This document shows, piece after piece, positions 11,649-24,224 of a DNA stretch of 32,000 nt. This DNA is from Desulfotalea psychrophila LSv54. Its GTDB lineage: Bacteria > Desulfobacterota > Desulfobulbia > Desulfobulbales > Desulfocapsaceae. The notes under the pieces are model-generated. The model did not search any database and was not told the origin of the DNA. It saw nothing but the letters and a program-made list of their open reading frames with translations. The translations under genes were made by a program, and so were the position numbers. Position 1 is the stretch's first letter. The number at the start of each line of letters is the position of its first letter. The stretch covers positions 240,001 to 272,000 of the forward strand of contig NC_006138.1 of NCBI RefSeq assembly GCF_000025945.1. The letters run 5' to 3'.

Positions 11649-11795
11649 CAGTGAGCAGTGAGCAGTGAGCAGTGAGCAGTGAGCAGTGAACAGTACACAG
11701 TGAACAGTGAACAGTGAACAGTGAACAGTGAACAGTGAACAGTGAACAGTGAACAGTGAACAGTGAACAGTGAACAGTGAACAGTGAACAGTGAG
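11649..11795. repeat. perfect-period heptanucleotide tandem array, 21 units: (CAGTGAG)5 CAGTGAA CAGTACA (CAGTGAA)13 CAGTGAG
   Basis: Counted directly: 147 bp, ending 32 nt upstream of the ATG at 11828. It generates the spurious ORF 11541-11825 (the FTVHCSL reiteration). Confidence 0.95.
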
Positions 11796-11827
11796 CGTAA
11801 ATAAAGTTAATCTTGAAGGGAACAAAT

Positions 11828-12295
11828 ATGGCTAGAGTGAAGGAAATAAAAAAAGATTACGGCTTTTTTGGTATTGGCATACTGAATAATGTTAACGAAT
11901 TAAATATTGGTACCCTGTGGCGATCTGCATATATCTTGGGCGCGAGCTTCATTTTCACCATTGATAAAAAATATAAAACACAGAGTAGCGACATTACCTC
12001 GGCCTGGACAAAGATTCCACTGTACCACTATAAAACATTTGCTGAGTTCAAAGATAATTTACCCTTTGCCACAAAAATCGTTGGGGTAGAGATGGGGGAG
12101 AGCTCCATTGCCATAGGAGATTTTTCCCATCCAGATATGGCGGTATATCTTTTGGGCAATGAACAGCGCGGATTGAGCAAAAAAATTACCGACCAGTGCC
12201 ACTCTCTTATACAATTACCTGGAGAATTTTCCCTGAATGTTGCGGTGGCGGGAAGTATTGTCATGTATGATCGGCTCAACAAAGAGGTTAGATAG
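11828..12295 (+). CDS. SpoU/TrmH-family RNA 2-prime-O-methyltransferase (SPOUT), minimal single-domain form
   Basis: SPOUT motifs VGVEMGE, LLGNEQRGLS and IPGEFSLNVAVAGSIVMYD-like. The ATG at 11828 is preceded by GAAGGGA. The listed ORF begins at TTG 11813. Confidence 0.8.
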   Translation: MARVKEIKKDYGFFGIGILNNVNELNIGTLWRSAYILGASFIFTIDKKYKTQSSDITSAWTKIPLYHYKTFAEFKDNLPFATKIVGVEMGESSIAIGDFSHPDMAVYLLGNEQRGLSKKITDQCHSLIQLPGEFSLNVAVAGSIVMYDRLNKEVR

Positions 12296-12351
12296 CTGTC
12301 AGCTCTCAGCTCTCAGCTCTCAGCTGTCAGCTGTCAGCTGTCAGCTGTCAG
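12294..12351. repeat. heptanucleotide tandem array, 8 units: AGCTGTC (AGCTCTC)3 (AGCTGTC)4 + AG
   Basis: Counted directly. It begins inside the TAG stop codon (12293-12295) of the SpoU gene. Confidence 0.95.
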
Positions 12352-13781: not shown

Positions 13782-14068
13782 TTATGGAGATAGAGGCATG
13801 GGCCTGTATTCTTCCATAGCCTTTTCATCTGCTATTACCGGAAAAACAAGTTCCCCTTCTCCAGCCTCTGCGGTAATTTTCCTATATGGTTTTGGTTCAA
13901 AATAATCACGGCCTTTACGGCCAACGACTAACATAGCAGAAAGGGCATCAATCGCCATGCGCTGGGTCTCTTCTATGCTTTCACCACAGGTTAACGCCCC
14001 TGGTACATCCGGAATGCGCACAGACCATCCGCCACTATTCGGGTAAAAATTGCGTGATAGATATCCAT
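13782..14068 (-). pseudogene. hicB: HicB-family antitoxin (UPF0150-like), frameshifted after codon 8
   Basis: GGAGGA-tcaa-ATG at 14068 opens MDIYHAIF. The conserved continuation YPNSGGWSVRIPDVPGALTCGESIEETQRMAIDAL... is in the -1 frame. The switch maps to the T5 run (plus-strand A5 at 14045-14049); adding one T restores MDIYHAIFYPNSGGWSVRIPDVPG. Confidence 0.65.
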
Positions 14069-14219
14069 TTGATCCTCCTATATAACCAACTCAGGCCCCG
14101 TTCGGGCGATAATTATTTTAAATTTTGGTTCCCATGCCCAGCACAGCCATCGTTGCTCACAGGACACAGCTTTTTATGCTCCCATGCAGAAAATTGTTAT
14201 GAAAAATTCGATATTTTCA

Positions 14220-14891
14220 TTATTTCGAATATTTTTTTATCACATACTTCGCTAAATATTTTGTGTCGTTCTTAGTTCCAGAGTAGCCGAATGACATTGC
14301 AATAGTAATTACTGAAGCATTTTCAATTAACCCTCTACACTTTTGAAAAAAGAGATCTCGTTTTTCTTGAGACCAAAGCTCTGATTCTAAGTACATACCA
14401 GAGTCATTAAAAACATCAATATCTAAATCAAAAGCATATTGTTTTGATTTTTTTACAGCACACATATTTTCGATTTCCTGATGGATGTATTGCTTTGCAT
14501 TGTAAGTTTTTAAAAAGTCAGGTGAAAAAGCTATTTCAGTTCCTTTTTGTCTACAATAAAAGTGAACCTCATCAAAGATCCTCTTAATTATTGCAGGAGC
14601 TATAAAACCATCTTTTGAAATATAGTCTTCACTTACCAAGCTAAATAAAGCGGTTAATTCAGCTTGAGATATGTCAGACAATGCTTTCTCACATTGAAAA
14701 TCATTTATAGCATCCCAATGATAATCAATATGATACAAGCTTAATGGTAAGCTGGTTTTCACTCGATCGATATAGCTAATCCATGCCCAAAAAGCCCATT
14801 TGTGATCATCCATGAGCCAAACATTTGGATATATTTCTTTGCAGAAATCATCACTGTTAACAATGTAATCATCAAATGTTTTCATAGACAT
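14220..14891 (-). CDS. hypothetical protein, possibly UPF0489-like (arginase/deacetylase-fold metal-dependent hydrolase)
   Basis: The ATG at 14891 is preceded by GAGGA; the listed ORF extends to 14963. Motifs WLMDDHKWAFWAW and LYHIDYHWDAI resemble the DHH...H.D.H.D pattern of UPF0489. The family assignment is from memory only. Confidence 0.5.
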   Translation of the reverse strand: MSMKTFDDYIVNSDDFCKEIYPNVWLMDDHKWAFWAWISYIDRVKTSLPLSLYHIDYHWDAINDFQCEKALSDISQAELTALFSLVSEDYISKDGFIAPAIIKRIFDEVHFYCRQKGTEIAFSPDFLKTYNAKQYIHQEIENMCAVKKSKQYAFDLDIDVFNDSGMYLESELWSQEKRDLFFQKCRGLIENASVITIAMSFGYSGTKNDTKYLAKYVIKKYSK

Positions 14892-15005
14892 AGTGTCCTC
14901 ATATACATAGCGCCTGCAATAAAGTGTGCGCCCACTGGATATTCGAAACCAATTACATTCCATACCCTAAATTCCCAGTGTTACAGCATCACATTGATGA
15001 CTTTG

Positions 15006-15833
15006 TTAGAATCTATCAAGTAGTGAGATATTTTGAGATAGAGCTGGTGATTTCTTTGGTAAAGTTAAAAGAATATGACTAATTTGTTCAGAAAAGTATC
15101 TAATTAAACAATTTTCATTTCCACAGTTAATGCGAATTACAAACTGTAAGCACTCATCGGATTTACTAATGCTTGACAAGAAGTTAACACCTATATAGCC
15201 ACCGCTAAAGTCCACAACACGAAATCTGAACATTTTAGATATAGCATCTAAATTTAAGTTGTTACTTAGCCTCTCATGACTAACAACAAATGTCATGAGG
15301 TTTTTCTCTAAGCTGTACTGATATTTCATTCTGTGCCGACTCTTAATGAGAATAGACACTACCCTCATAATGTCTTTCAAATTACTACCCGCATCGTTCA
15401 TTGTATTGCTAAGATTTTTTTGTTTTCCGGTATACTTAGACAAGACATTATCTCTTTTCCCATTCATACTCTTATGACCTTGCCGTAACGCTTTAACCCC
15501 TTTTTTCAACACACCTTCATTATAAGAATGCTCTATATACAATTCAATATGTTTAATTGCATAATCTAAAGAATCCAATGAAAACATTTCTGTCTTACCG
15601 TCACCAACAGAATAATCTAGCGAATAACTTGAAAGGATTAGATGCAATGATTTTTCAAGAGTAAAAACATCATCGATACAAATCTCTAAGGAATAGGATT
15701 CTTCGTAGTCGGGCTCCCCCCACCATTTCTTCAAACTTATCATTCGACTAGAAATATCATTTGCTTTTCCAATTTTAATTGCTCTGTTTTTTTGAAAAAC
15801 CAAGATATATAAATTCGTTTTTTTCATATCCAT
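15006..15833 (-). CDS. T5orf172 / MUG113 (GIY-YIG-like) domain protein with unknown C-terminal region of about 170 aa
   Basis: N-terminal LYILVFQKNRAIKIGKANDISSRMISLKKWWG ... LEKSLHLILS ... GKTEMFSL matches the T5orf172 pattern (hydrophobic strand, KIG, R..L, E..lH, EWF-like). Confidence 0.6.
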   Translation of the reverse strand: MDMKKTNLYILVFQKNRAIKIGKANDISSRMISLKKWWGEPDYEESYSLEICIDDVFTLEKSLHLILSSYSLDYSVGDGKTEMFSLDSLDYAIKHIELYIEHSYNEGVLKKGVKALRQGHKSMNGKRDNVLSKYTGKQKNLSNTMNDAGSNLKDIMRVVSILIKSRHRMKYQYSLEKNLMTFVVSHERLSNNLNLDAISKMFRFRVVDFSGGYIGVNFLSSISKSDECLQFVIRINCGNENCLIRYFSEQISHILLTLPKKSPALSQNISLLDRF

Positions 15834-15937
15834 ACCATTTGATTATAACGCCTATAACAAGGTGGGTGAACGCTGAACCTACCAAACCAAGAATGCCGAG
15901 TATAACGCGTCACCTTAATTGCCTTATTACACCTTTC

Positions 15938-16789
15938 TTAATTGGTTGTTATTTTTTTATACTCATGAATTGATTCAGCTATTGTCTGCTTTGACTTAAA
16001 CTCAGGAATACAAGAGTAACATAGCCAACAATTAATTATCTCCGGGTTGCCACGAAACTCGATGAATGATTTAAATTTAGCGTATCTACGCAGTTCGCTT
16101 GAATCGGTATATATCCTTGTTTTTATATATGCCTTCTCGTAAGTGATATAGCAATAAAAACAATATACATACGGAATAATCGACACAGAGAGTAGCATAG
16201 GGACGAGAAAGTCACGTAAAGTTGATATATTGAAAAACTTGTCTACGTCATCACTAACATATGACAGGCTATCGATGAACAAATAAATACCGAGTATGCT
16301 CAATGCTATACCAAAGACTGATTTAACCTTTTGAAATTTAGGGTCTGTTGAAGCTACAACACTACAGCAGGCAATAAACGTTGACACTGTTACCAGTATT
16401 AGTTCGGTTATGAAACCGTAAGAATGGAATGCAACAAGGAATTCAATTAACACAATAACTTGAAACTGTTGCTTCAGCGCTCTTTTAAGATACTGCACCC
16501 CACTGTCAACATTGACTGTGTTGGATAATTGGACACTACCAACAAAAAGAAACCAGACTACTGTATTTTTCACCTGAGATGTATCCCAGATAGCAACCTC
16601 TCTTAAACACCACACAACACCGACAGTAAATAGCGAAAAAATCACGAACGGTGTCACTATTTCTCGCTGAAAAAATACCTTGATTAGTTGTACAAATGCG
16701 TTTCTAACCCTAGACTGCCGCAAACAGTAAAGCAACACCACTGATACCAGCAACGCTGATGCCAGCTCACGATTATTGAATACTTCCAA
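15938..16789 (-). CDS. polytopic inner-membrane protein (about 6-7 TM helices), no recognisable family
   Basis: 283-aa ORF with repeated hydrophobic helices (ALLVSVVLLYCL, VTPFVIFSLFTVGVVWCL, VVWFLFVGSV, VIVLIEFLVAF, LILVTVSTFIACCSVV, FGIALSILGIYLFI, LVPMLLSVSIIPYVYCFYCYI). TTG start with GGTGA 6 nt upstream. Confidence 0.6.
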   Translation of the reverse strand: MEVFNNRELASALLVSVVLLYCLRQSRVRNAFVQLIKVFFQREIVTPFVIFSLFTVGVVWCLREVAIWDTSQVKNTVVWFLFVGSVQLSNTVNVDSGVQYLKRALKQQFQVIVLIEFLVAFHSYGFITELILVTVSTFIACCSVVASTDPKFQKVKSVFGIALSILGIYLFIDSLSYVSDDVDKFFNISTLRDFLVPMLLSVSIIPYVYCFYCYITYEKAYIKTRIYTDSSELRRYAKFKSFIEFRGNPEIINCWLCYSCIPEFKSKQTIAESIHEYKKITTN

Positions 16790-16915
16790 TACAAATCACC
16801 TATATCAATTCTAGGCATAACGCCCAATTAAGCTGCACCCAACGCAATGATCAAGCTACAACAATGTACCTCAATCACTATACCAATTGGAGCTGAAAAT
16901 GCCATGCGTTGGGAA

Positions 16916-17521
16916 TCATGGTAAAACTAATTTACAGATCTGTGTTGCCAACTCAAGCCACCACGTAATTAGACTAACAGAGAGCCCAACTACAAAAAGA
17001 GAGAAGGTTAGAGGGATTTTGTCCCTAAGAAAGCTGAAATGTTTCTGCTCGTCAACCCAATCGATCTGGTGTTGCCAAAAAAATTTGTAGTGCGCATACC
17101 AATCACTAAACAGGATTTGCTTGCTTTGGCATGAACTATAATATTCACCTTGTAGCTGAGAAAGTTGGTTTTCCAATATCTCAATATCAGACCCATCTGA
17201 GTTTTTTGTCTTGCGATATAGTTTTGCAAGGTCATTGTATAATTGTGTTAATTTTATACCATAACTTTCATATGCTGTTTTCTTATGATCGTAGAGTGAT
17301 ATATACAATCCAACAATACCTAAGACAACAAATGATGCAGACAGAAACTTAGTTGATAAGCCTTCAAAGGCAAGTGCGTAAATGCCGAATGCCATTGAGA
17401 AAAAGCTAATAAACCCAGGTGTTTTCTCTACAATATCATAGGTTGCAAAATGTTTTTTTGCTCCAAAACCAACGTTGTAACCAGTCTCTGCGATATGTTT
17501 AAGCAAATCTTCTTTATTCAT
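16916..17521 (-). CDS. SLATT-domain membrane effector (SMODS/SLOG-associated 2TM family, SLATT_5-like)
   Basis: AETGYNVGFGAKKHFATYDIVEK motif, followed by two adjacent TM helices (GFISFFSMAFGIYALAF; FLSASFVVLGIVGLYISLY), a helical region and a third C-terminal helix. The ATG at 17521 lies 5 nt after GAGG, and this RBS overlaps the upstream gene's TGA stop (GTGAGGcagaaATG). The listed ORF start at 17566 would overlap the upstream gene by 38 nt. Confidence 0.7.
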   Translation of the reverse strand: MNKEDLLKHIAETGYNVGFGAKKHFATYDIVEKTPGFISFFSMAFGIYALAFEGLSTKFLSASFVVLGIVGLYISLYDHKKTAYESYGIKLTQLYNDLAKLYRKTKNSDGSDIEILENQLSQLQGEYYSSCQSKQILFSDWYAHYKFFWQHQIDWVDEQKHFSFLRDKIPLTFSLFVVGLSVSLITWWLELATQICKLVLP

Positions 17522-17528
17522 TTCTGCC

Positions 17529-18815
17529 TCACTTGATTGGTACGTAAATTCTATTTTTGGCAACAACTACATTGTTTTTAATAGCATAACATTCAACTAT
17601 ATGCTCGCCTTTAAAATCCGTAGACTCCCTTCGTTCTTTTTTCCCGCTATCATCAACAATTTGACCACATATACAATTACGTTTTTCAGCTTCTACTCCA
17701 CGATTAAGCACTTTCCATTTAATGGAATAAGGTTTAGGGACATTTATATAAGATATATTAAAGTATAGTTTTTTATTAGCTAATAAAGGGAAATTTTTTG
17801 CTAGCATCTCAGTAAGAAATCGCTTTTGATAGCCATGTTGTGTTACTTCGCATTCCAGTTCTAAATCATATCGAACATCAATTGGAAACTTCTCTTCAAT
17901 AAATTGTTCGGTATCCTGCCATGTGCGTGCAGATTTTAAAGCTTCTTCGACATGTTTTGATTTTGCAGGGAATGGACGGCCATAAACTTTTTTCCATTTG
18001 TCATGAGCACTATTTCCATCCCCAGCTTCAATAGCTTTTAAACATAGCTCATAGGCTTTTTTGGCTTTCTTTTGGAATTTTTTCTTGACTTTAACATTCT
18101 GGCCACTGCCAAGGGCCTTATAATGGTCTTGACTTGGTTGCTCCATGAGATATTTAAAAAAGTCTCTACTCATCCAATCGTAGAACAGGAAACTCTTGTC
18201 ATCATAATCCGATGTTGATTTTAGGAAGTTATGAGCCAAAGTATCGATTAAAAGCCCACCCATACCGACGCCATGTTTGTTTTTCCAGGCTCTTGCCATC
18301 TTACAAAGCTTACGAAGATTCTTGCTTTTCTGATCAACAAAATCCTTCATCGCCGTCATTTCATCACGTGGTTTAGTGATTTTCCAGCTTCCACCGCTGT
18401 AGGTATCAGGATATTTAAAGCTTTCATCATCCTGTTCAAATACAGGCTGTACTTCTACTTGAAAACCTCTATACAAAACTTGTACAACAAGCCGATCAAC
18501 CTTAACTTCAGTGGTAGGATATCTAGCTTTAATCGCGTCTTTTGTATCCAACAACAATTTGGATTGTTTGTTATTTTTATAATCATCCCATTTATTCTTG
18601 GGCATAAGATACAACATGTCAAGATCAGAAATTCCTTTAACCCCCGTCCATCGACCATAAGACCCGACTTGTAATCTATTTTCTTTCTTTGAATCAGTCT
18701 CTCGGAACTTTTTATTTAAGCTTGAAGTAATTTCCCCATATTTCAAGCTAATTTTACCAGCATTATCAGTGACTAAGTTAGCAAGAAGATCCTGAAACAT
18801 TTCTGAAATTGTCAT
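17529..18815 (-). CDS. SMODS-family nucleotidyltransferase (predicted second-messenger oligo/dinucleotide synthetase) with AGS-C-like C-terminal domain
   Basis: Pol-beta NTase signature VGSYGRWTGVKGISDLDMLY (G51-S52, D64, D66), with a probable third acidic residue in FQVEVQP. SMODS-typical block YPDTYSGGSWKITKPRDE...LCKMARAWKNKHGVGMGGLLIDTLAHNFL. A beta-rich tail of about 130 aa follows (YSIKWKVLNRGVEAEKRNCICGQIV...). Confidence 0.75.
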   Translation of the reverse strand: MTISEMFQDLLANLVTDNAGKISLKYGEITSSLNKKFRETDSKKENRLQVGSYGRWTGVKGISDLDMLYLMPKNKWDDYKNNKQSKLLLDTKDAIKARYPTTEVKVDRLVVQVLYRGFQVEVQPVFEQDDESFKYPDTYSGGSWKITKPRDEMTAMKDFVDQKSKNLRKLCKMARAWKNKHGVGMGGLLIDTLAHNFLKSTSDYDDKSFLFYDWMSRDFFKYLMEQPSQDHYKALGSGQNVKVKKKFQKKAKKAYELCLKAIEAGDGNSAHDKWKKVYGRPFPAKSKHVEEALKSARTWQDTEQFIEEKFPIDVRYDLELECEVTQHGYQKRFLTEMLAKNFPLLANKKLYFNISYINVPKPYSIKWKVLNRGVEAEKRNCICGQIVDDSGKKERRESTDFKGEHIVECYAIKNNVVVAKNRIYVPIK

Positions 18816-19359
18816 AATTACCCTTGTTTTTATCTTGTAGTTAACCGGTTACGTTAACGCAGCTACTTTCAGCCCTCTATTTTCCATATATCTCAATGTC
18901 AGCAAATGTGGCATGGAAAAACATAGCTCACCCTTCAAGCCGGAGCAGGCATCAGAACAACCACTCCAACAATCTCCAGCCCAACATAATTTTCCACAAT
19001 AGACCCAATAAATTACCAGCAAATCTCCTGACAAAAAACCACCTCTATCGCTTTAACAGGAAAGGTGTGCTTTTTCAAAGGAAAATCCTAATATCAATAC
19101 ATTGCGTGATGGGATGACAAGCAGGACTCTGTTAAGGGCAAGGATGGGTAGAAAAAAAAGCAGAATGACGCAGCACACCTCCCCTCGCCAAGGTGAGGAG
19201 TTAGGGCAAAGAAGAGGCAGGGGCGGTGGTTAAGGAATGGATCGAAATAATTGGCAAATAAAGATCTTTAATGGTTGGGCAGAGATAGCCCATCTGATCT
19301 CATTTCAAGAAACCGACCTTGGCTGGGCAAGTCCCATTGGCACGGAGCTGAGCACCGGA

Positions 19360-19423
19360 AAAATTTGCGATAAAGGAGTTTGACCTGTTTGAGCGCAGCG
19401 AGTTTCAAACTCCCGCAAATTTT
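19360..19423. other. long imperfect hairpin (19 paired bases, 5-nt bulge, 21-nt loop) in non-coding DNA
   Basis: aaaatttgcg[ataaa]ggagtttga (19360-19383) pairs with tcaaactcccgcaaatttt (19405-19423). Confidence 0.6.
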
Positions 19424-19508
19424 GAGGAGCACAGGGTGCCCGTAGGGCCGGAGTGGCAGGGCTCTTTCTTTTGGTTCGTTTTCTTTTGAGTAAAAGAAAA
19501 TGAATGTA

Positions 19509-20027
19509 CTACCAAAGCTCCGGCGACATTAAAACGGAAACACATTCAACCGTCCCGGAAACCCCTTGCAATGCGCCTACCCTTAACTCTTTTGCCTGCC
19601 ATGCCTCCGGGTATGGCAATGAATACGATGGACTTACATCATGAACTGGATGAAAACCACTGCGGCTATAATAATCTGGATCACCCAAGACGAACACAAC
19701 ATCCGCGCCCTGGGCGGTAAGTGTTCGTAAACCATGCTCAATTAACTGACTGCCAACCCCCTGCCTTTGCCTTGCAGGTGATACAGCCAGAGGCGCCAGA
19801 ATAAAGCATGATAGATTGTCGTTATTTGAAATACTGACTGGACTAAAAAGAATATGACCAATGACGAGATCATCGCTCACCGCAACCAATGAGAGTAGGG
19901 GGTGAGCTGCCTTGATCAAGTCTATGGCCAGTTTCGCCACAAGCTCGCGCTCATCGGCATCAAAGGCTGCCATATGAAGCGCATAAATCGCCTCAAGTTC
20001 ACGACTCTTCGATTCTCTAATGATCAT
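19509..20027 (-). CDS. GNAT-family N-acetyltransferase (YhbS-like)
   Basis: 172 aa. Acetyl-CoA binding motif RQRQGVGSQLIEHGL (Q/R-x-x-G-x-G/A). Typical short single-domain layout. RBS GAGGA lies 6 nt upstream. Confidence 0.8.
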   Translation of the reverse strand: MIIRESKSRELEAIYALHMAAFDADERELVAKLAIDLIKAAHPLLSLVAVSDDLVIGHILFSPVSISNNDNLSCFILAPLAVSPARQRQGVGSQLIEHGLRTLTAQGADVVFVLGDPDYYSRSGFHPVHDVSPSYSLPYPEAWQAKELRVGALQGVSGTVECVSVLMSPELW

Positions 20028-20659: not shown

Positions 20660-21257
20660 AGGACTCCGATATGAATTTCAATTGAGGACAACAGCTGCCA
20701 TAGGGTGGTCGCCACTGAAGACTGCCCCCCAAATGCGGCCTGCAGCAGAGTCTATTTCTACCTATGACCGCAACCAACAGACAAAATGGAAATACTGCCT
20801 CCCTTGCAGCCAAAGTAGAGACCAGGGCCTCTTCCTGACCTCCCCTCCACATTTAAAATGGGCGCCATAGGTGAGAGCATCTTCCCAGGCAAAAAGATCC
20901 TGCAAGGAGTTAACAGGACTAAAGCGACCATGTAAAGTCTTTTGATTAATATCAGTACATTGCAAAAAAGCAGAGTGGCGCAGCTCACCTCCCGGCCTCC
21001 CCCTTTAAAATAAGGGGGAGGAGAAAAGGGGGAGGAGGGAAGATGAGGAGTTAGGACAAAGGAGAGACAGAGGCAAGGATGGGGAGGCGCAGGAGGAGTA
21101 AAAAATCCATATTGCCTGAAAAAACGAGATCTTGTATTCTAGCTTTTATAGCCTCTTACCTTTGTCCCATCTTTTTTAGCCATTCCAACCCAGGCAAAAC
21201 AAATTGATAAAGAGTTCTTTACCCCCAGCAATGAAGGCCTCAACTATAGGGATGTCA

Positions 21258-24224
21258 ATGCGCAAAACAAAATTATACCTAGCTCTTGCCAGCTTAATTC
21301 TGGCCACCCCAGCCCACTCCTATGAAACAATTACTGTTGGCAATTTTGAAGCACAACTTCTTGCACCTGGAGAATCAGCATACGCCATAGGAGCAAAAGC
21401 CAGTGGAGCTGGTTATACAGAAGATTATCGAGAAACGGTAACAGGAGCCGAAGCGTGGACCCAGGGACATAGGGATGCTATTAGCAGAAGCCTGCAAACA
21501 CTAGAACAGAGTTTTGCCATGGGCAACCCAAATAGAAAAATGCAAATTGCCTTTACCTTAGAGAAAGGGGAATATCTCGGGATGTCACTTGGCACCCTAA
21601 TTTTCGACCAAGCTCAGCAGAATATTATCGCAACAGGAGAGTTGCTTCTGCGTAATAATATCCCTACAAACAATGTCCTAGGTAGCGTAGACGATATTAT
21701 CATAATGTTCACCTCAGTTCCTCTGCATTACGGCCCTGAGGCTCCTGGCCACGGCCAATATGACTTCCAAGCAACGGTAACCCACGAAATACTCCATGCC
21801 ATGGGTATTATGAATGGTAATGCCAGAGATGGAGGGTACCCAAATGGGATGACAAGATGGGATTCCTTGTTAAAAGATGTTTATGGTGGCACTCCAGCTC
21901 CAGGGAATCCCCTTCCTATTAGCACTATTGGTAAACTAGGTACTGTTTTTTGGACTGGCGCAGCTGCCAACGCTACCTATGGAGGAGCTGTCCCCATACA
22001 GACTTTTACAAATGCATATAGGGAAGGTAGCTCCCTTGCCCATCCAGCCCCTCCAGGAGAATTGATGTCCTATATGGGGAGTCCTTTAGATGCTCCAAGA
22101 GCGCCGAACAAGCTCCTGCTTGATATGTACCGAGATATGGGCTGGAATATAAATGATGCCTACTATAATAGTTTTGGCCCCACCTATTACAGCAACGCTA
22201 GCCACATAAGCAATACGAATGACTTCGCCACAAGCCATAGTTATACCTACGCTATGTACGTTAATGGCAATTATAATCTTATTGACCAGAGTGGTAATTT
22301 AAAAACAACGAAGGAGCAATCGAACGCCCTATATGTATATGGAAATGGAAACAAAATTAGAGTGAACGGCACACAGTCTGCCGATGCAAATTACTCCCAC
22401 GCACTCTACGCTTTTGGTATAAAAAACCAGATATTTATAGAAGGCGAGGGGACTCTGACCGCAAAAGGAGCTGGTTCTGTTGGTCTTTTACTTTTTGGTT
22501 TTGATAACTCCATTTTTCACTCTGGAACTATCCTGGCGAGTGATGAAGCAACAGCTATTAGGATTGACAATCATCGGGCTACCTGGGGATACCGCCTGAA
22601 TACATCACTGCACCTCCAAACCGGATCAAAGATAGTTGGGGATATTATTAACACTGACTCTACGAAGGCGGCAGATATGACCTTTGGTCGTAAATATGCC
22701 AGTGATGGGAGCTATAGCCCTGACCCTAATTTCAATTTTTCCTACAATGATGAGATACGAGGGGATTGGAATTATGACTTTCATAGTGGTACGGTAACAT
22801 TTGCCAATACACTCAATCAGCATGAAGGTACAATATTAACAGGTAATGGTTCAATTATTGGTGATGTTGATAGCGCGGGTATTATCGCCCCGGGTAATTC
22901 TATTGGCAAACTAACAATTAACGGAAATCTTAGCCAAACCAGTAGTTCGGATTTACAGATAGAATTTGGTGACGGTGGCTACGATCAGCTTGTGGTGAGC
23001 GGTACAGCTCATCTTGACGGCTCACTTTCATTAATCCCCATTGGTTATCTTACTCCGGGTACCCATCAATTCATCAATGCAGGTGCCCTTGCCGGTAACT
23101 TTGCCACTGTAAATAACTTTTCCAGCAGTATCCTGCAAACATCAGCTTCCAGTTTCAATCCCAGCAATTTTAATCTAGTGCGCAATAGTTACGCATCAGT
23201 AAGTGAAAGCCAGCAGCAAAGTCTAGCCAGTTCTTTTGATAGAGCTCGACCGACTGCAAGCGGAGATATGGCAGATACTCTCAATCTGATGGATCTGATG
23301 AATCTTACCGATATCAGGCAGGCAGCAGACGATTTTTCGCCTTATTTCTACAACTCTGTTACCACAGCAATTTTAGAAAACATCAGAACAAGATCAACTT
23401 TCTTGCAAAACAAGATAAGAGGAGATGAGACAGATCGTCAATCGCCACTCTGGTTCTCGGGCTACGGCGGTACTACCCAGTACGACAAGACAGTCACCAG
23501 CAACGATTTTAAAACCAAATATTCCGGTTTTATGCTGGGCTTTGACAGACAATTTGCATCTGGATTTCAGCTAGGAGCCGCAGGCGCTTTCACTGATTTT
23601 TCTTTCAAGGAAAAAGCCACCACCAGCAAGGCAAGGGGTTCTGTTTATGATGGCTATCTTTACGGTTCATGGTCACCACAGGCAAATAATGCGTTCTACC
23701 TGCAATCAACTCTAGGCATTGGCCTTACTGACTCTAAAACCAATCGGAATATACCCTTTCTAGATAGAACAGCCACTAGCGACCACGATGCAATCCATTA
23801 CTCTGCCTTTCTTGGCGGTGGTTACAAACAGCAGATAGGCAATTGGTCTCTTGAGCCACGGGCAGGGCTTGAGTACATCAATCTTGATGAAGACGGCTGC
23901 ACAGAATATGGAGCAGGAGCCGCCTCCCTTGCTATCAACTCAAAAGATTCCGACGCATTGGTAAGTTCTCTTGGGGTTGAAATCAGTCGTACTATTGAGC
24001 TCAATAATGGCTCGTTAGTGCCGAGCTTTCGAGCTGATTGGTTCCATAATTTTTCTGCCAAGGGAGAAAATACCATCGCCACCTTGCAAAGCGGTGAATC
24101 TTTCAGTGTTGATGGTCGCACGGCAAGCGAAAATGCCCTGGAATTAGCCCTTGGTTTAAGGGTACTGGTCAGCAATAAGCTACACGGTTATTTTGAATAT
24201 CAATACACCTTTGCCGACAATTAA
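21258..24224 (+). CDS. autotransporter (type Va) with N-terminal HExxH metalloprotease-like passenger; copy 1, ends at a premature in-frame TAA 15 codons before the paralog's stop
   Basis: Signal peptide MRKTKLYLALASLILATPAHS. HEILH at 21783-21797. Autotransporter-associated beta-strand repeat GNSIGKLTINGNL...LVVSGTAHLDGSLSL. C-terminal beta-barrel with alternating aromatic strands. The start was chosen by alignment with copy 2; the listed ORF opens at 21204. Confidence 0.85.
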   Translation: MRKTKLYLALASLILATPAHSYETITVGNFEAQLLAPGESAYAIGAKASGAGYTEDYRETVTGAEAWTQGHRDAISRSLQTLEQSFAMGNPNRKMQIAFTLEKGEYLGMSLGTLIFDQAQQNIIATGELLLRNNIPTNNVLGSVDDIIIMFTSVPLHYGPEAPGHGQYDFQATVTHEILHAMGIMNGNARDGGYPNGMTRWDSLLKDVYGGTPAPGNPLPISTIGKLGTVFWTGAAANATYGGAVPIQTFTNAYREGSSLAHPAPPGELMSYMGSPLDAPRAPNKLLLDMYRDMGWNINDAYYNSFGPTYYSNASHISNTNDFATSHSYTYAMYVNGNYNLIDQSGNLKTTKEQSNALYVYGNGNKIRVNGTQSADANYSHALYAFGIKNQIFIEGEGTLTAKGAGSVGLLLFGFDNSIFHSGTILASDEATAIRIDNHRATWGYRLNTSLHLQTGSKIVGDIINTDSTKAADMTFGRKYASDGSYSPDPNFNFSYNDEIRGDWNYDFHSGTVTFANTLNQHEGTILTGNGSIIGDVDSAGIIAPGNSIGKLTINGNLSQTSSSDLQIEFGDGGYDQLVVSGTAHLDGSLSLIPIGYLTPGTHQFINAGALAGNFATVNNFSSSILQTSASSFNPSNFNLVRNSYASVSESQQQSLASSFDRARPTASGDMADTLNLMDLMNLTDIRQAADDFSPYFYNSVTTAILENIRTRSTFLQNKIRGDETDRQSPLWFSGYGGTTQYDKTVTSNDFKTKYSGFMLGFDRQFASGFQLGAAGAFTDFSFKEKATTSKARGSVYDGYLYGSWSPQANNAFYLQSTLGIGLTDSKTNRNIPFLDRTATSDHDAIHYSAFLGGGYKQQIGNWSLEPRAGLEYINLDEDGCTEYGAGAASLAINSKDSDALVSSLGVEISRTIELNNGSLVPSFRADWFHNFSAKGENTIATLQSGESFSVDGRTASENALELALGLRVLVSNKLHGYFEYQYTFADN

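Follow-up and report, generated by a model that had tools for sequence, protein, structure and literature searches.

In Desulfotalea psychrophila LSv54, a 32,000-nt stretch of contig NC_006138.1 (positions 240,001 to 272,000 of the forward strand; hereafter the window, whose own numbering is used throughout) carries a run of five minus-strand genes, in which a cyclase/effector pair of a cyclic-oligonucleotide-based antiphage signalling system (CBASS) is followed by three orphan genes, here called C, D and E. Our analysis makes it very probable that the segment from ~14.0 to ~18.9 kb is an integron-type cassette array without a nearby integrase, resembling a cluster of attC sites without an integron integrase (CALIN). 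The three spacers that follow the effector gene, gene C and gene D are attC recombination sites, partly decayed. In the direction of transcription, the genes and sites are as follows, with scores for the sites taken from a covariance model, R1, that is described below.

17529..18815, minus strand: cyclase of the cGAS/DncV-like nucleotidyltransferase (CD-NTase) type, with SMODS and AGS_C sensor domains (Pfam SMODS 3.4e-42, AGS_C 1.8e-49).
16916..17566, minus strand: SLATT_6 effector with two transmembrane (TM) segments (Pfam SLATT_6 4.1e-81; PADLOC 2TM effector 6.9e-86).
16812..16941, minus strand: attC1, site of the CBASS cassette (R1 59.7 bits, E 8.5e-14, full-length; 18 of 22 model pairs).
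15938..16789, minus strand: gene C, 283 aa, unnamed family with 31 homologs, TTG start.
15840..15934, minus strand: attC2, site of the C cassette (R1 17.3 bits, E 0.012, full-length; 18 of 22 pairs).
15006..15833, minus strand: gene D, 275 aa (Pfam T5orf172 at residues 9-87, 26.9 bits, cutoff 20).
14902..15013, minus strand: attC3, site of the D cassette (R1 17.4 bits, E 0.011, full-length; 17 of 22 pairs).
14220..14891, minus strand: gene E, 223 aa, ureohydrolase fold, PF12640 (UPF0489; Pfam 92.9 bits, cutoff 27).
14080..14201, minus strand: possible fourth attC after E, unconfirmed, with an ATAAC...GTTAT box pair at the right places.

The initial annotation of this DNA had described three minus-strand open reading frames (ORFs) of 283, 275 and 223 aa, co-oriented with the SMODS-SLATT pair upstream, separated by 104-126 nt and low in G+C, and both the coordinates and the composition agree with it. 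The length of 223 aa requires an internal ATG at 14891 within the listed 247-aa ORF (14220-14963); the NCBI call for the same gene is 221 aa, equivalent to a start at ATG 14885. The spacers measure 126 nt (16790-16915), 104 nt (15834-15937) and 114 nt (14892-15005). The G+C content is 0.33-0.385 over 14001-19000 compared with ~0.41-0.48 in the flanks, where ordinary chromosomal genes are found on both sides, and the island is thus compositionally distinct. Scans of the whole window with Rfam and for tRNA genes gave no matches.

The starting clue to the nature of the spacers came from the neighbourhoods of C homologs: a Vibrio parahaemolyticus locus (L005) holds ~19 copies of a ~130-nt repeat, and the Desulfotalea spacers resembled this repeat on reading by eye. 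R1 was built from 19 aligned L005 repeats, with no sequence of the window included, and was run over the whole window on both strands with filters off. Its three best matches coincide with the three spacers, and each is on the gene strand and covers the full length of the model; the fourth-best match in the window has an E-value of 3.2, and these E-values, like those listed above, are rough by about fivefold. On a control of 149 kb of unrelated loci, R1 reached E <= 1 only at a genuine site after a C homolog. Since an attC-type site almost fills each spacer, the regular spacing is not due to chance, and the distances of 104-126 nt are the lengths of attC sites.

The register of the sites relative to the genes follows the canonical polarity, the R'' box abutting or overlapping the upstream stop codon and the R' box (GGCGTTAT...) ending 6-22 nt before the next start. 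attC1 fills the 126-nt spacer and reaches into the SLATT ORF, covering its last 26 nt, with an intact R' box (GTTAT) and TAAA in place of TAAC in R''. attC2 fills the 104-nt spacer and likewise has an intact GTTAT in R', with TAAT for TAAC in R''. In attC3, the TAA stop of D lies inside the intact R'' box TCTAACAAAG, and R' reads GCTAT for GTTAT. This last site covers the 24 codons by which the 247-aa ORF is spuriously extended at its N-terminus, and so supports the 223-aa call for E. An attC site is expected to have R''/L'' and L'/R' boxes that pair into an imperfect hairpin and to keep the core triplets AAC and GTT. The number of model pairs kept is 17-18 of 22 here versus 20-22 in V. parahaemolyticus. 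When the DNA folds were compared with those of shuffled sequences, attC1 proved markedly stable (z = -3.5). A generic inverted-repeat search combined with single-strand folding singled out only the SLATT-to-C spacer, so that attC2 and attC3 would be missed by folding alone.

As defined for CALINs, whose frequency in genomes without intI has also been described (PMC4889954), at least two attC sites should lie within ~4 kb; here three sites fall within 2.1 kb, each ORF is followed by its attC with all cassettes co-oriented, and no integron integrase is encoded nearby, within the 32-kb window. Neither the window ORFs of at least 120 aa nor six-frame fragments of 18816-19520 matched the tyrosine recombinase family Phage_integrase/PF00589, and intI was not found within ~13 kb on either side of the array. 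No attI or insertion sequence (IS) element was found in the window. A broader attC model that included the window's own sites (R2) added no site in the window and gave only two weak matches in the other loci. The possible fourth attC, after E, was not detected by R1 or R2 at E <= 10, and its fold has a z of -0.9.

The resemblance to CALINs and to the cassette arrays of Vibrio extends to the co-oriented ORFs, each followed by an attC of ~95-130 nt belonging to the V. parahaemolyticus attC family, to the lack of a nearby integrase, and to a cargo that mixes genes of unknown function, a defence system and a toxin-antitoxin remnant; cargo family C is itself shared with real Vibrio arrays. Unlike the Vibrio arrays, the present one resides in a sulfate reducer of the Desulfobacterota, not in a gammaproteobacterium, and has only three detectable sites, each with a core substitution and 17-18 of 22 pairs, and no defined ends.

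The pair at the head of the array, noted in the initial annotation as SMODS-SLATT, is real by its Pfam and PADLOC matches, the cyclase matching PADLOC Cyclase PDLC00796 over its full length (1.6e-194). On these sequence matches (Cyclase plus 2TM effector), the pair is a type I CBASS, and it corresponds fully to the known arrangement of a CD-NTase with a 2TM/SLATT effector and no Cap2/Cap3 or HORMA/TRIP13; the same two-gene layout occurs in nine relatives. The true start of the SLATT gene is likely the ATG at 17521, 7 nt past the cyclase stop, where both the Pfam match and the homologs begin; SLATT_6 relatives of 198-217 aa directly follow the cyclase in nine loci. If translation begins there, just 7 nt separate cyclase and SLATT, the pair holds no attC inside it, and gaps of ~110 nt are thus confined to the three junctions that follow SLATT, C and D.

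Hairpins of ~100 nt were also observed after SMODS-SLATT relatives in other bacteria (L015 8890-8995 and L018 8930-9045). Their ends read AAAC...GTTT or TAAAC...GTTAT, their folds have z values of -2.2 and -1.6, and R1 and R2 gave no match to them. They look like attC sites of other sequence families, in which case cassettes would carry the CBASS pair in other bacteria as well.

Two arrangements had been envisaged in the initial annotation for the three genes downstream, namely independent single-gene cassettes or a five-gene system built around the CBASS pair. In the latter, all five genes would be co-transcribed, with C providing a second membrane effector, D a nuclease effector and E a hydrolase that processes or degrades the nucleotide signal. 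CBASS often has nuclease and membrane effectors, and the common orientation and low G+C of the genes are consistent with such a system. To this may be added the spacers themselves. Terminators in each of them, which the initial annotation had said would speak against a joint system, were not found by the promoter/terminator scan: predicted sites are no more numerous than in shuffled sequence, and the three spacers hold no terminator-like site. Because of this, co-transcription of all five genes is possible, and the scan leaves the matter undecided.

The gene-neighbourhood comparison proposed in the initial annotation was run on 51 related loci (465 kb), obtained with SMODS (16 loci, from a species-level genome collection), C (10), D (16) and E (9), and searched by tblastn with all five proteins. 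Only SMODS and SLATT_6 co-occur, in 9 of the 51 loci, and none of the loci of C, D or E contains any other of the five genes, a uniform result whose power is limited by the shortness of many loci, although several others extend for 5-8 kb on each side. None of the 16 SMODS loci has a relative of C, D or E in the fetched flanks; this includes 13 close SMODS relatives (47-72% identity), nine of them with an adjacent SLATT_6. Conversely, all 35 loci with relatives of C, D or E are devoid of SMODS and SLATT. A search of PADLOC-DB with C, D and E returned no match at E <= 0.1, in agreement with the earlier remark that no canonical CBASS accessory gene (Cap2/Cap3, HORMA or TRIP13) is present. Compared with type I CBASS, the three genes thus stand outside the system, with no co-occurrence and with attC sites intervening. 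A five-gene extended CBASS is further opposed by recombination sites that split the genes into independently mobile units and by the chemistry of E, whose ureohydrolase superfamily hydrolyses guanidino groups, not phosphodiesters; we regard it as extremely unlikely. Independent single-gene cassettes are the arrangement that the data favour, with attC sites between the genes and each family recurring alone in unrelated contexts.

Scans of viral contigs returned no relative of D and one each of C and E, and a phage origin of the three genes was rejected on these counts. None of the three families is common on plasmids.

Several other points, together with the possible single transcript and the short comparison loci, weigh against the cassette-array interpretation. 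attC2 and attC3 score only ~17 bits with the independent R1 model, and their single-strand folds are no stabler than those of shuffled sequences (z = -0.3 to -0.6). Each of the three sites carries one altered core triplet, and from their sequences the present-day recombination competence of attC1-3 is doubtful. Upstream of SMODS, R1 and R2 revealed neither an attC nor an attI, and past E they gave no confident site, which leaves the ends of the array undefined. An intI gene may lie elsewhere in the genome, the scan having covered the 32-kb window. Finally, separate cassettes do not by themselves prove functional independence.

These points bear on two further explanations. The segment could be an ordinary defence or genomic island, acquired by transposition or by homologous recombination at a hotspot, whose likeness to attC sites is incidental. 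The window does lack an integrase, attI or IS element, and two of the three attC calls are weak, with folds that are not significant. Against this stands the score of attC1 with a model derived from the integron of another phylum, and the three matches with E < 1 are the only ones and sit in the spacers, on the right strand, over the full model and in the right register with stops and starts. In bona fide Vibrio arrays, too, relatives of C are accompanied by sites of this type, and we consider an ordinary island quite improbable. The second explanation is a complete, active integron with intI and attI outside the window or on another replicon, whose cassettes could still be mobilised. For about half of all CALINs, IntI is encoded elsewhere in the genome (PMC4889954), and R' is intact in attC1 and attC2. 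The absence of intI within ~13 kb, the core-triplet substitution in every site and the loss of 4-5 of the 22 pairs argue against it, and a full-text literature search returned no paper about an integron in D. psychrophila, judged by title and abstract. An active integron therefore seems unlikely, and the integrase-less cassette array is retained as the preferred interpretation. The main text of the IntegronFinder paper does not mention the genus Desulfotalea. As for a source, tblastn against plasmids gave few distant matches, and a mobile integron or plasmid donor was not found.

The integrase-less array would have arisen in the following way. The four cassettes, composed of the cyclase and SLATT_6 with attC1, of C with attC2, of D with attC3 and of E with the possible fourth attC, would each have been captured separately in a donor integron bearing attC sites of Vibrio type, where an integron integrase acted on attC sites folded into hairpins. 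Horizontal transfer may then have brought the block to D. psychrophila, or the block may have lost its platform, and it would now be decaying as a fixed island without intI. With a substitution in the AAC/GTT core of every site, the array is probably fossilised or poorly mobilisable. As the Pc/intI platform is absent, expression would depend on read-through or on promoters internal to the cassettes. C, D and E would be functionally independent of the CBASS pair and of one another.

Gene C encodes a protein with five strong and two weaker hydrophobic segments (6-7 TM helices) and a conserved, soluble, cytoplasmic C-terminal helical part of ~60 residues. The TTG start is backed by a conserved N-terminus of the family, M-x-x-FNNRELA, and the description of C as a membrane protein with 6-7 TM helices and a TTG start is thereby borne out, with no family found: Pfam, PADLOC, NCBIfam and PHROG gave no match. 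The strongly conserved polar positions include the N-terminal NNRELA, K74-N75-T76, H122, E129 and R235. The AlphaFold2 model is all-helical, with a predicted local distance difference test (pLDDT) value of 77.7, and a Foldseek search of the PDB with this model returned no match at E <= 0.001.

The 31 homologs of C come mostly from Vibrio, Aeromonas and Oceanisphaera. In V. parahaemolyticus (L005-L007) and Vibrio sp. T11.5 (L008), they lie in the long runs of small co-oriented ORFs typical of superintegrons, with GNAT, DUF4240, DUF1706 and Phd/ParE genes as array neighbours. R1-positive sites directly follow the C homolog in Oceanisphaera (L002 8857-8961) and in L009 and L010, and the relatives in L004 and L008 are found within arrays bearing such sites. 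One Aeromonas relative is a lone insertion between fdhD and formate-dehydrogenase genes. From these contexts, we infer that C is a stand-alone membrane protein recurring as a cassette in marine Gammaproteobacteria. Because it recurs as a single-gene cassette, our best guess, made with low confidence, is that C may be a self-contained membrane effector or an immunity protein.

In one of these loci (L009 7054-9797), the C homolog and its attC adjoin a gene with a HEPN_LA2681 domain and a metallo-beta-lactamase gene matching the Anti-Pycsar Apyc1 family. This neighbourhood is defence- or counter-defence-flavoured.

For gene D, an N-terminus of T5orf172/MUG113 pattern, GIY-YIG-like, had been suggested. 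The assignment to the GIY-YIG-like nuclease family T5orf172 (PF10544) stands, with a score above the gathering cutoff and conserved catalytic-type residues, while MUG113 falls just under its cutoff. A match to phrog_681, an endonuclease in the phage collection PHROG (9.3e-11), was also obtained. Among 38 family members, Y9, K20, G22, R30, E60 and E82 are invariant. The C-terminal half, described earlier as unassigned, matched no known DNA-binding family and is specific to this family, which comprises 254 representatives, dozens of them full length, among 1.84 billion proteins. The contexts of the relatives are varied: a small plasmid-like contig (RepA_C, ParA), positions beside Double-GTPase/GAP1 genes or beside a cluster of Hsp70-like, kinase-AAA and TerB genes, and a position beside alaS.

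T5orf172 nucleases that owe their DNA specificity to a second domain are described from phages and satellites, for example ICP1 and PLE (PMC8263062, PMC8096241, PMC10448857). D shares with them a T5orf172 domain at the N-terminus, in which Y, K-x-G, R and E are conserved, and the presence of a second domain. It differs in that its C-terminal half has no DNA-binding family match and that its family, essentially absent from viral contigs, occurs chromosomally, on a plasmid-like contig and next to genes of conflict type. By analogy, the most likely function of D is that of a DNA endonuclease, for which the C-terminal half would supply private target recognition.

The suggestion that E is a UPF0489 protein, an arginase/deacetylase-like metal hydrolase, holds on its Pfam score, its motifs and its fold. 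PF12640 is now the peptide-arginase family. Its members OspR, FlmR and OhkR turn peptidyl-arginine into ornithine and use for this a binuclear Mn centre that three motifs hold in place (PMC12703449, PMC10028609). These motifs (namely DXHXD, EEH(N/H)EAF, LDIDLDYF) carry the six Mn ligands (PMC12703449) and have counterparts in E in LMDDHKWAF, HIDYHWD and FDLDIDVF. In 40 relatives, the conservation of H30, D56, H58, D60, D155 and D159 is complete or reaches at least 90%, and the same holds for D28 and H54. A profile of the E family aligned with OspR (PDB 8BRP) at an E-value of 1.7e-7 over all three motifs; the search of the PDB with the single sequence of E did not reach 8BRP, and the family profile was needed. 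The AlphaFold2 model of E has a pLDDT of 93, and its best Foldseek match is again 8BRP (E 9e-7), followed by agmatinases, arginases and guanidinases.

E thus resembles OspR, FlmR and OhkR in scoring above the PF12640 cutoff, in possessing the three motif counterparts and in having 8BRP as its best model match. Compared with OspR, it is 14-16% identical and ~80 residues shorter (223 aa versus 301-305 residues in the 8BRP chains). Unlike the peptide arginases of pathways for peptides synthesised ribosomally and modified after translation (RiPPs), it falls in a clade of ~220-240 aa proteins from mobile contexts. No recognised precursor-peptide gene, maturase or other RiPP biosynthetic gene lies beside E in the window or in the related loci with gene tables, a comparison that did not screen short unannotated ORFs as precursors; E is therefore a PF12640 member but not demonstrably a RiPP maturase. 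Judged from its motifs and its modelled fold, E most likely hydrolyses guanidino groups in a Mn-dependent manner, with peptidyl-arginine or a related compound as its substrate. This predicted chemistry argues against degradation of the CBASS signal. A role for E in processing or degrading the nucleotide signal, as proposed initially, was rejected, its fold and motifs being those of guanidino-group hydrolases.

Relatives of E occur between aromatic amino-acid genes, in a tRNA-adjacent island, and in a toxin-antitoxin-rich array of small genes with an ORF-less group II intron. In Sulfurimonas (L050/L051), the relative overlaps a 321-aa gene of unknown function. Two of the contexts deserve mention in their own right. 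An ORF-less group II intron (L014 4977-5631; RF02005, 104 bits, and RF00029) lies just upstream of a 62%-identical E homolog, in the toxin-antitoxin-rich array, whose small genes are co-oriented. Since some group II introns target attC sites, this array may also be integron-like. On a Burkholderia thailandensis plasmid (L049 3555-5693), an E-family gene is located 31 nt downstream of a 471-aa RES-domain, toxin-like gene. This position hints at a toxin-modulating role, and the two genes may form a toxin-modulator module.

Beyond E, at the downstream edge of the island, one more gene was observed.

13782-14075, minus strand: gene for a HicB-like antitoxin, interrupted by a frameshift (Pfam HicB_lk_antitox 3.6e-4, which is below cutoff).

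The frameshift occurs at the ATTTTTACCC run, with MDIYHAIFT in one frame and PNSGGWSVRIPDVPGALTCGES... in another, and the gene has a good ribosome-binding site and no visible HicA partner. The split could reflect a sequencing error, or the gene could be a pseudogene or the decayed form of a toxin-antitoxin cassette at the edge of the array; it may represent a further cassette or the border of the island. At the other edge, the 690 nt upstream of SMODS (18816-19508) contain no recognisable coding frame, attC match or integrase remnant and have G+C-rich segments unlike the island. Elsewhere in the window, two tandem arrays of 7-nt units, CAGTGAA x21 (11649-11794) and AGCTGTC x8 (12294-12351), lie one on either side of a SpoU-type methylase gene (11813-12295), and two adjacent paralogous autotransporter genes of ~1010 aa each are encoded on the plus strand at 21204-24224 and 24681-27722 (Pfam Autotransporter beta-domain ~1e-55 in both).

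Anti-phage systems are often encoded by the cassettes of chromosomal and mobile integrons (bioRxiv 10.1101/2024.07.02.601686; 10.1101/2024.07.02.601719). A role in conflicts with phages or mobile elements is plausible for each of C, D and E, and since compact defence genes abound in integron cassettes, all three are sensible candidates for single-gene screens. It is a speculative possibility, with a modest chance of being correct, that at least one of the three cassettes is a stand-alone gene against phages or mobile elements not yet listed in defence catalogues. The most unusual candidate would be E, as a compact enzyme resembling peptide arginases whose part in defence or counter-defence would be to convert arginine residues, or a different guanidino group, of a target in the phage or the host. 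If this were true, E would carry the conversion of arginine to ornithine beyond RiPP biosynthesis and into biological conflict.

The cassette-array interpretation explains the regular spacing, common orientation, low G+C and orphan character of the genes, and an integrase-less array takes the place of a new and speculative CBASS variant with five genes. As a CALIN or cassette array with a CBASS cassette in its cargo, it belongs to a kind already known; mildly unusual here are the phylum of the host and, in attC1, the clear signature of Vibrio type. Its cargo of note consists of a recurrent membrane protein for which the PDB holds no detectable fold relative, a T5orf172 nuclease of two domains and a short enzyme resembling peptide arginases. 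The presence of Vibrio-type attC cassettes, including a complete type I CBASS, in the chromosome of a psychrophilic sulfate reducer of another phylum illustrates the distances that such blocks can cover.

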